The notes under the pieces were generated by a model, which did no database searches, had not been told where the DNA came from, and was given only the letters and a program-made list of their open reading frames with translations. Source: a virus (lineage: Duplodnaviria; Caudoviricetes). Taken from it: a DNA stretch of 34,624 nt. This document shows, piece by piece, positions 12,916 to 16,998 of the stretch (position 1 is the first letter of the stretch; each line of letters opens with the position of its first letter). A program made the translations under genes and the position numbers. The DNA lies in IMG/VR virus record IMGVR_UViG_3300043171_000124, positions 1 through 34,624 of that record; one strand, 5' to 3'.

Positions 12916-12988
12916 AGTGGTATAGCTTAACGGTTAGAGCATTTAAGGTCGATTGTGGTCGATGCTGGTTCGAATCCAGCTACCACTT
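12916..12988 (+). tRNA. tRNA-like element / pseudo-tRNA with aberrant anticodon arm
   Basis: Acceptor AGTGGTA/TACCACT, D arm TAGCTTAACGGTTAGAGC and T arm GCTGG-TTCGAAT-CCAGC are intact. The canonical anticodon stem does not pair, and there is no encoded CCA. Confidence 0.75.
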
Positions 12989-13001
12989 CACAAAGAGTTT
13001 A

Positions 13002-15885: not shown

Positions 15886-15967
15886 TGGTATAATTATTGT
15901 CTAATCTGATACATTAGACCTATACGGAACATATTTGCTTTACTTATTAATTTAAGTAGGGTATAAT
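15886..15967 (+). promoter_or_regulatory. Tandem -10 promoters (TGGTATAAT 15886-15894; TTTAAGTAGGGTATAAT ending 15967) upstream of the ribozyme-tRNA unit
   Basis: Two perfect TATAAT boxes in an ORF-free region; the second predicts a start at about 15974. Confidence 0.65.
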
Positions 15968-16044
15968 TGTTTTTTTGCGATAGTAAATATTTACAGCGTG
16001 GGCTTCTCAGAGCCGTTGACACAGAAGCATCTAGCCCTACACAA

Positions 16045-16094
16045 CACGCCTGATGAGGATTTTAAATCCGAAACCTTGATTAAAAGGTAGCGTG
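16045..16094 (+). ncRNA. Type I hammerhead ribozyme
   Basis: Stem I CACGC/GCGTG; core CTGATGA (16050-56); stem II GGATT/AATCC; GAAA (16070-73); stem III ACCTT/AAGGT; cleavage triplet GUA with predicted cut between 16089 and 16090. All conserved core positions match. Confidence 0.92.
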
Positions 16095-16158
16095 GAGTCT
16101 CCCAAGTAGGGGAATAACTGGAGACCTAGACGGCTCACACTGTAAGTATTTATAAAAT

Positions 16159-16234
16159 ATGGATAAAGGCTTGATGGTAAGCCGCCTCACTTGGGCTGAG
16201 GAGATTGTAGGTTCGACTCCTACTATCCGTACCA
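16159..16234 (+). tRNA. tRNA-Pro(UGG), atypical
   Basis: Acceptor ATGGATA/TATCCGT, D stem GGCT/AGCC, anticodon arm CCTCA-CT TGG GC-TGAGG, T arm GTAGG-TTCGACT-CCTAC, ACCA end. Confidence 0.88.
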
Positions 16235-16237
16235 TAT

Positions 16238-16311
16238 TACAGGATCGTCTAATGGTAGGACAATACCCTTTGAAGGTATGAATCATGGTTCGAGTCCATG
16301 TCTTGTATCCA
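16238..16311 (+). tRNA. tRNA-Gln(UUG)
   Basis: Acceptor TACAGGA/TCTTGTA (U1-A72), anticodon arm ATACC-CT TTG AA-GGTAT, T arm CATGG-TTCGAGT-CCATG, CCA encoded. Confidence 0.93.
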
Positions 16312-16312
16312 T

Positions 16313-16388
16313 CTTCACTTAGCTCAATCGGTAGAGCATTGGATTCCAAATCCAAAGGTTATAGGTTCAAATCCTATGGTGTTGGCCA
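16313..16388 (+). tRNA. tRNA-Trp(CCA) with mismatched acceptor stem
   Basis: D arm GCTC/GAGC, anticodon arm TTGGA-TT CCA AA-TCCAA, T arm ATAGG-TTCAAAT-CCTAT, GCCA end. Acceptor CTTCACT/GGTGTTG has two U-U mismatches. Confidence 0.8.
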
Positions 16389-16409: not shown

Positions 16410-16418
16410 TGGTATAAT
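16410..16418 (+). promoter_or_regulatory. Extended -10 promoter (TGGTATAAT) into the structured non-coding region
   Basis: Consensus match just downstream of the tRNA array. Confidence 0.6.
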
Positions 16419-16424
16419 AACGAC

Positions 16425-16975
16425 ATATCAATTAAGCTCATTATTATGGGTTTATAGATAAGTTCTTAAATTTAGTTTTGTTAATATTCTCGTATAGCCC
16501 TACCAAGAAGCTAACTAAAATTAGTCTCACTTTAACGAGTGGGTCTATACGAGAATTATTCTAGTATCTTGGTAGGGTGCTTCTATAATTCTTCAAATGA
16601 ATATCAACTTCAATTTACCATAATAAAATCTTACTGAAAAAAAACTCTGTATAAAGAAATTTATACGACTGGAGAGGTTATAGAGTGTCCTCAGACCGAT
16701 GGCTCGTATGTTGAGCGAAGAAATGATATAGACTCCTAAACAGGCGACATTTAGTTGTGTGCTGTAGGTAATACAAGGGAATGGCATCCGCCTTGTTAAA
16801 TGTGTATATTCCTAGCGTGTAATAAGTGCTAGGGTATGTGTAAGCAAACGACGGCTCCGAAGTCATTTTTGTTGCATACTTTTATGAGAAATTTATCTAA
16901 TCGTATTTTTTCTCAGGATATTTGTATGCTTCGCTTCACTCCTTCCTAAGTCATATTACTTTAAGAGAGTAATTA
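16425..16975 (+). ncRNA. Hairpin-dense ORF-free region; candidate large ncRNA and/or replication origin
   Basis: Crossing 12-bp and 11-bp stems (16486-16577) and many hairpins, e.g. GTATAAA-GAAA-TTTATAC, ACATTTAG/TTAAATGT, TTCCTAGC/GCTAGGG, GCATAC/GTATGC. Confidence 0.5.
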
Positions 16976-16998
16976 ATAAATATAAGAGAGATTAAGAA

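Follow-up and report, generated by a model that had tools for sequence, protein, structure and literature searches.

A hammerhead ribozyme motif in the linker of a conserved, predicted double-pseudoknot RNA upstream of phage tRNA genes

What might a hammerhead ribozyme do just upstream of a phage tRNA operon? The stretch of DNA analysed here (the window) is a whole virus record of 34,624 nt with direct terminal repeats at its ends, and its PHROGs matches include terminase, head-tail adaptor, major head protein, tail proteins, exonuclease, SSB, methyltransferases and NinG. The hammerhead and the tRNAs occupy a non-coding region on the + strand, 3' of NinG and one small ORF. A previous sequence-only reading reported three CCA-ending tRNAs on one strand, separated by 3 and 1 nt, and a predicted cut 69 nt 5' of tRNA-Pro; both statements were confirmed, the latter by the coordinates. 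It proposed that the hammerhead acts on the 5' leader of these tRNAs, which are as follows.

16159-16234, + strand: tRNA-Pro(UGG), CCA encoded
16238-16311, + strand: tRNA-Gln(UUG), CCA encoded
16313-16388, + strand: tRNA-Trp(CCA), CCA encoded, with two U-U mismatches in the acceptor stem

The same reading placed a type I hammerhead at 16045-16094 with a GUA triplet and a predicted cut at 16089/16090, and a structural descriptor indeed found the canonical core and three stems there, as its sole match in the whole genome. Stems II and III are closed by loops and stem I is open, as in the type I structural definition. Matches of equal quality appeared in 0 of 150 dinucleotide shuffles, and loose matches averaged 0.013 per genome. 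The Rfam hammerhead models, which had been proposed as a check, gave no match at the gathering score and none at E ≤ 10.

16045-16094, + strand: type I hammerhead in the scaffold linker, predicted cut 16089/16090
16045-16049/16090-16094, + strand: hammerhead stem I, 5 bp, open stem
16050-16056, + strand: hammerhead core CUGANGA, perfect
16057-16061/16065-16069, + strand: hammerhead stem II, 5 bp, 3-nt loop
16070-16073, + strand: hammerhead GAAA
16074-16077/16084-16087, + strand: hammerhead stem III, 4 bp
16087-16089, + strand: hammerhead GUA triplet (NUH), predicted cut 16089/16090

When we compared the 45 hammerhead-bearing members of the RNA family described below, the stem I pair next to the cut was CG in 21, GC in 18, AU in 5 and UG in 1, and stem I had at least 3 bp in 43 of the 45. 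The triplet was GUC in 30 and GUA in 12 (42/45 for the two), and these patterns speak for selection on the hammerhead. Stem II varies freely among the homologues; its first (basal) pair is canonical in the window and non-canonical in 31 of the 45, and these 31 hammerheads may cleave slowly. The core is degenerate in two members, L294 and that of phage Gaia (L466). In predicted folds, stem I forms with a probability of 0.53-0.93 in nascent transcripts up to 16138, of 0.06 in the nested-only fold of the full RNA, and of 0.94 with the pseudoknot strands blocked. With stem I covarying across 45 homologues, the sequence comparison indicates that 16045-16094 is very likely a real ribozyme, whose cleavage is predicted. 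A 16-mer from the hammerhead matched 32 loci, with the motif in none, and a loose hammerhead pattern gave similar real and control counts among 41 capsid relatives, none of which had a tRNA.

The sequence-only reading saw the hammerhead and overlooked a larger RNA that encloses it, at 15984-16152. The segment 15974-16158 folds far better than its shuffles (z -4.0), and a 13-bp stem closes 15984-16152 around the hammerhead. The hammerhead site is the linker in a conserved RNA of about 95 nt (15997-16136), hereafter the scaffold, for which a double pseudoknot is predicted.

15984-15996, + strand: 5' strand of P0, a 13-bp outer closing stem with 16140-16152
15997-16002, + strand: conserved scaffold leader motif, whose G16000 makes an isolated covarying pair with C16118
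16002-16007/16023-16028, + strand: 5' hairpin Pa, whose loop holds the PK1 5' strand 16010-16017
16028-16034, + strand: conserved junction
16033-16034 facing 16103-16104, + strand: 2-bp mini-helix, with an A-A mismatch in the window
16035-16040, + strand: PK2 5' strand
16091-16125, + strand: scaffold 3' domain, made of the conserved segment 16091-16096 and hairpin P4
16097-16102/16120-16125, + strand: hairpin P4, whose loop holds the PK2 3' strand 16106-16111 and a conserved A-rich junction 16112-16119
16129-16136, + strand: PK1 3' strand, pairing with 16010-16017
16140-16152, + strand: P0 3' strand, ending 6 nt 5' of tRNA-Pro

The predicted energies are -12.5 for PK1, -8.1 for PK2, -13.6 for P0 and -6.0 kcal/mol for stem I, and stem I takes its 3' strand from the conserved scaffold segment 16091-16094. 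Searches with scaffold patterns gave 72 and 73 viral loci and 32 genome-contig loci. A parser accepted 124 of 178 loci, window included, which make 97 distinct members; 13 of the 54 unparsed loci were later shown to be members and are left out of the counts. Since the parser demanded Pa, P4 and PK2, the pairing of these elements is partly by construction. In a MAFFT alignment of 32 sequences, 94.8% of the cells pair, compared with 37-46% in slid controls, and 22 of the 34 scaffold pairs change on both sides, a number reached by 0 of 500 shuffles. PK1, which the parser did not demand, has at least 6 bp in 93 of the 97 members versus 24% of swapped pairs, and all eight of its pairs show double changes in the 32-sequence alignment. 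The lone pair G16000-C16118, likewise not demanded, is formed in 58 of 59 filtered members (GC 43, UA 15) and in 32 of 32 aligned sequences, while 16033-16104 is paired in 73% of the filtered members. The scaffold also has many invariant unpaired bases and lone pairs. Based on compensatory changes in the sequence of one divergent member, L124, 16030-16032 may pair with 16094-16096. A helix of 16030-16034 with 16126-16130 was ruled out by the variation of its 3' partner among members, and pairing of the UGG motifs with tRNA CCA ends was rejected because CGG takes the place of UGG in four cultured-phage members and the leader motif is variable. An HDV-like topology was also rejected, as the strand order differs from that of HDV.

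The scaffold occurs in cultured phages of Arthrobacter, Mycobacterium, Microcystis, Pectobacterium and Enterobacter, and the genome-contig matches carry labels from several phyla, some of them perhaps misbinned phage contigs. It was found in one of 46 records related to the window phage, many of which are fragments (one of 10 near-complete records). L124, one of 27 NinG relatives, has the hammerhead in the same architecture, with compensatory helix changes and no tRNA nearby, and a covariance model gave it 21.6 bits (E 1.5e-6). Each of the six closest relatives carries the hammerhead, and one is identical over 72 core columns. We scanned 66 of 183 flanking ORFs, mostly same-strand and longer ones, around 48 members; 16 match head, packaging or connector families, and such genes flank 13 of the 48 members. 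A conserved partner protein was rejected, as none recurs among the scanned ORFs apart from the head genes.

The scaffolds of 16 member loci had no Rfam match at E ≤ 5, a BLAST search with the entire intergenic region returned tRNA matches only, and one weak partial plasmid match had an E of 0.8. Closing-stem patterns matched at least 119 loci in which no scaffold was seen, and later ones matched 10 viral and 12 metagenome loci, among which only the L124 phage was re-found. In the literature, with most subscription papers outside the search, no description of the scaffold RNA was found, and four motif strings were absent. Fremin et al. 2023 list 8,495 candidate IMG/VR RNAs in the available text (PMC10690425), and the scaffold may be among those candidates. 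From sequence, many unrelated phages appear to share an uncatalogued RNA, predicted to be a double pseudoknot, in which the hammerhead is optional but fixed in its site.

The members show three layouts. First, 52 of the 97 have no hammerhead core, and the linker is 3-7 nt long in 49 of those. Second, 45 of the 97 have a hammerhead in the linker (35 of 47 in a search that did not select on the insert), always at one fixed linker, where the scaffold C-G-U serves as the stem I 3' strand. Other inserts occupy the hammerhead loop in L297 and L307. Third, the scaffold is circularly permuted at four loci, namely L434, L435, L467 (Pectobacterium phage Pappous) and L468 (Enterobacter phage SDFMU_EhYP), with the order hammerhead, 3' domain, a hairpin joining the old ends, and 5' domain. 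These permuted genes break exactly at the hammerhead site and the hammerhead leads in 4/4; two further phage records are identical to L467 over the permuted stretch. Cultured phages represent each layout: Mwe-JY26 has no hammerhead, Constance and Karkharias an internal one, and Pappous and SDFMU_EhYP the permuted form.

Contigs of six public runs, compared at 80% likeness and coming from related elements rather than from the window phage, cover 15986-16041 and 16082-16157 and leave the hammerhead core uncovered. In the marine contig X7-12, 16041 is joined to 16090 via 2 nt and the hammerhead is cleanly absent; the shorter side of this alignment is 55 nt, and its halves have 9 and 7 differing letters. 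In contig X3-9 (shorter side 30 nt), 25 letters replace 16038-16108, with a compensated PK2 and no hammerhead. A weakly resolved scaffold tree, built from 72 core columns, has 17 changes of hammerhead state, compared with 31.5 in shuffles, and four of the changes are forced by strong branches, indicating that the hammerhead is clustered on the tree and not fixed; the tree cannot tell gain from loss. A closing stem of at least 8 bp is present in 21 of 45 hammerhead-bearing versus 13 of 52 hammerhead-less members (P=0.03; swapped controls 5-7%), a modest difference that is confounded by the greater share of hammerhead-less members in tRNA arrays; phages that are related also do not count independently. 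Closing stems are likewise stronger with the hammerhead than without it, at medians of -15.5 and -8.9, respectively (swapped, -6.5 and -8.0), four values being inflated by repeated flanking hairpins. Near-identical hairpin repeats of about 20 nt were observed on both sides of the scaffold in L305, L310, L328 and L335.

How, then, is the hammerhead related to the tRNAs? The sequence-only reading had named hammerheads unlinked to tRNAs in homologous phages as evidence against itself, and such hammerheads were found: 33 of the 44 other hammerhead-bearing homologues have no tRNA within 1.4 kb. A tRNA lies within this distance in 11/44 members with a hammerhead versus 22/52 without, and downstream within 100 nt in 8/44 versus 14/52 (P=0.34). 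Among the six closest relatives, a tRNA is nearby in two and absent in four. Where a tRNA lies no more than about 400 nt away (11 cases), the cut would leave a leader of 51-245 nt, and both cleavage products are predicted to stay paired. The scaffold itself is near tRNAs in 28 of 83 viral members versus 1 of 112 control loci. The controls fitted the pattern by chance and probably come mostly from coding DNA, and phages that are related do not count independently. Every one of the 33 tRNA-linked members is on the tRNAs' own strand, many of them 1-4 nt from a tRNA end. Judged by these loci, the tRNA link is that of the predicted enclosing scaffold RNA, not of the hammerhead. Of the uncoupling that had been proposed, one part stands, in that a cut here would part the upstream RNA from the tRNA precursor and leave a 5'-OH end, but the view of the hammerhead as a tRNA 5'-leader processor is not supported.

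Several further observations concern tRNAs. In L303 (1573-1982), a hammerhead-less scaffold lies between tRNA-Cys and tRNA-Tyr, beside a permuted tmRNA gene and a portal gene. In the window the acceptor stems are atypical, with A1-U72 in tRNA-Pro, a U discriminator in tRNA-Gln and the two U-U mismatches in tRNA-Trp; they depart from the usual bacterial identity elements, and these tRNAs may be poorly charged or decoys. At 12916-12989 (+ strand) there is a tRNA-like gene with an irregular anticodon arm and no encoded CCA, which ARAGORN cannot assign and Rfam scores at 46.9 bits. In other phages, scaffold-free type I hammerheads lie 18-74 nt 5' of tRNA or tRNA-like genes (L132, L133, L134, L136 and L137; 5/7 loci, with a pattern that demanded both parts), including two records of about 340 kb, and these would be better candidates for leader processing than the window.

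The TATAAT box that the sequence-only reading saw 5' of the hammerhead is present in the window.

15962-15967, + strand: -10 box TATAAT, a possible but weak promoter for a transcript of the scaffold RNA and the tRNAs

We regard this promoter call as weak, because a -10 box lies within 60 nt upstream in only 8 of 96 members, and a conserved promoter of the scaffold RNA's own was rejected on the same count, the reverse strand giving 6 of 96. Matches resembling promoters are no commoner in this region than expected by chance (8 versus 7.1 in shuffles), and 15866-15894 matches the promoter consensus better. Downstream, 16486-16577 (+ strand) is a second candidate RNA, located 3' of another TG-TATAAT (16411-16418). 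It forms an H-type pseudoknot with perfect stems of 9 and 11 bp, which was equalled by 1 of 1000 mononucleotide shuffles and 0 of 111 other genome windows. A homologue of this candidate was looked for and none was found. Since its 9-mer 16495-16503 is shared with the scaffold PK2 strand (16032-16040), cross-pairing is possible. In L124, the divergent scaffold is followed at 641-735 by a second promoter-like box and a long structured non-coding segment, echoing 16411-16580 of the window. Further on, 16627-16982 is mostly non-coding, and contigs of all four public runs compared match it at up to 98-99% identity, with its flanks uncovered. Its predicted fold is no more stable than those of shuffles (z -1.3), and neither Rfam nor the phage records gave a match; the stretch is a candidate for an origin-like DNA element or another RNA.

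We suggest that the optional hammerhead insert would cut once, at 16089/16090, making the scaffold RNA a two-piece molecule with a free 5'-OH before the conserved CGUGGA, and we give this reading a probability of about 0.58. Its first two steps are shown by the comparison: a scaffold of about 95 nt, in which two loop pseudoknots and some isolated long-range pairs join hairpins Pa and P4, and a hammerhead that always sits in one linker and borrows the scaffold C-G-U as its stem I 3' strand. The hammerhead would then cleave, the weak stem I (-6 kcal/mol) could open, and PK1, PK2 and P0 would hold the halves together. The cut would be a maturation, not a destruction, of the scaffold RNA, because the permuted members encode, on a single strand headed by the hammerhead, that same opened molecule. 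As in established tRNA processing, cleavage by host RNase P at tRNA-Pro would free the 3' end of the scaffold RNA, so that the tRNAs would punctuate the transcript and the hammerhead would make no tRNA end. The tRNA 5' ends that RNase P generates carry a phosphate. Cleavage by small ribozymes yields a 5'-OH and a cyclic phosphate, according to the available text of PMC6765202. The last step is the weakest, a guess that we hold to be less likely than not: the product might be a trans-acting RNA, made late and in abundance, that serves as a decoy by binding a host factor of broad conservation. The accessory distribution, the unrelated hosts, the highly expressed locations and the lack of a partner gene point to such a trans-acting RNA.

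Against this nicking and maturation stand a nick that is dispensable, two degenerate cores and only four permuted loci. The nick cannot be essential to the scaffold, because over half of the members work without a hammerhead. It is also possible, though rather unlikely, that the scaffold represents a small phage RNA of a new class, catalytic or ligand-binding, made as a pro-RNA that its built-in hammerhead would activate; the nick would free the 5'-OH and CG(U) and let the active double-pseudoknot core form, and the permuted genes would have fixed the opened form.

Four other explanations have to be weighed against nicking as maturation. The one that survives best, although we consider it improbable, is a natural allosteric ribozyme, in which a scaffold aptamer shares CG(U) with stem I and a ligand or protein switches cleavage and the stability of the downstream RNA. 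Among hammerhead-less members retrieved with a pattern that left this base open, 12 of 12 have a C before GUGGA, suggesting that the segment shared with stem I has a second role, and the many invariant unpaired bases and lone pairs would suit an aptamer. Perreault et al. raise regulated phage hammerheads as a possibility in the available text (PMC3088659). However, the ribozyme to be controlled is missing in 52 of the 97 members, permuted members would make the aptamer after the ribozyme, and there is no conserved downstream gene, a same-strand ORF lying within 120 nt 3' of only 14 of 44 hammerhead-bearing members.

Alternatively, the cut could destroy the scaffold RNA, serving as a timer or off-switch, or a permissive loop could tolerate the hammerhead as a passenger. 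The insert is dispensable, degenerate in two members and replaced by others in L297 and L307, and its state changes repeatedly on the tree (17; 4 forced), as expected of a timer or passenger. Core and stem I are nevertheless kept with compensation, the closing stem is commoner in hammerhead-bearing members, and the cut of the permuted members makes the start of an otherwise intact scaffold, so that this explanation has little chance of being right.

A punctuating or protecting role in cis, where the cut parts the transcript and the knotted 3' half with its 5'-OH shields a tRNA precursor or head-gene mRNA from decay, appears quite improbable. The frequent location in head operons, including the position 5' of scaffold and capsid genes in phage Pappous, is in its favour, and the available text of PMC6765202 mentions a suggestion that bacterial hammerheads process polycistronic transcripts. 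Many members, however, are wedged between two tRNAs (L330, L360, L442, L460), whose processing would excise them, and the dense tertiary conservation goes beyond the needs of a spacer.

Processing or gating of the tRNA operon 5' leader by the hammerhead, as a 5' counterpart of theta ribozymes, fits the shared strand, the 69-nt distance to tRNA-Pro, the 8/44 homologues with a tRNA less than 100 nt downstream and the scaffold-free hammerheads 5' of tRNAs at 5/7 loci selected for both, but is highly improbable given the 33/44 without a tRNA within 1.4 kb, the lack of enrichment over hammerhead-less members (P=0.34), the tRNA that is upstream and not downstream in L435, and a cut that leaves a structured leader of at least 51 nt with a 5'-OH and thus still needs RNase P.

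According to the available text of PMC6765202, what self-cleaving ribozymes do in bacteria and phages is largely elusive, and the nicking reading would give such phage ribozymes a testable job. The same RNA without a ribozyme, with an internal one, or permuted behind one is a natural ready-made experiment in cultured phages. Published criteria for biochemically sophisticated RNAs, as given in the available text of PMC5737381, are occurrence in several phyla, pseudoknots and many near-invariant bases. The scaffold agrees with these published traits, suggesting a candidate new ribozyme, aptamer or anti-host RNA. A fold of about 95 nt that tolerates nick and permutation would also be a useful engineering scaffold.

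Among known systems, two-piece (permuted) tmRNA (Rfam RF04321) has one-piece, two-piece and permuted gene layouts in one family, as the scaffold has permuted layouts. In two-piece tmRNA host nucleases open the molecule, whereas in the scaffold a built-in ribozyme is predicted to do so. The scaffold has no tRNA-like domain or tag reading frame, and ARAGORN and Rfam found no tmRNA in the window.

GOLLD and ROOL resemble the scaffold as structured, pseudoknotted non-coding RNAs that often lie near tRNAs and in prophages, and the available text describes them as possibly co-transcribed with tRNAs, with ROOL averaging 581 nt (Weinberg et al. 2017, PMC5737381). The likeness is one of context only: the scaffold core measures about 95 nt, matches no Rfam model and may include a ribozyme. 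The theta (HDV-like) ribozymes of gut phages are likewise self-cleaving motifs in phage tRNA regions; in the available text their cut sites adjoin tRNAs and trimming of 3' trailers is proposed (Kienbeck et al. 2024, PMC10879173). Unlike them, the window motif is a hammerhead with no HDV-like Rfam match, its predicted cut lies 69 nt away from the tRNA, and linkage to a tRNA is optional. Finally, the window motif is like the type I hammerheads of bacteria, prophages and phages in its consensus core, three stems, open stem I and phage intergenic site, as far as the available text of Perreault et al. 2011 describes them (PMC3088659). The pseudoknots of that text join hammerhead stems I and II, while those of the window do not; the window motif is embedded in a larger, predicted double-pseudoknot RNA with which it shares stem I, and which also exists without the hammerhead.
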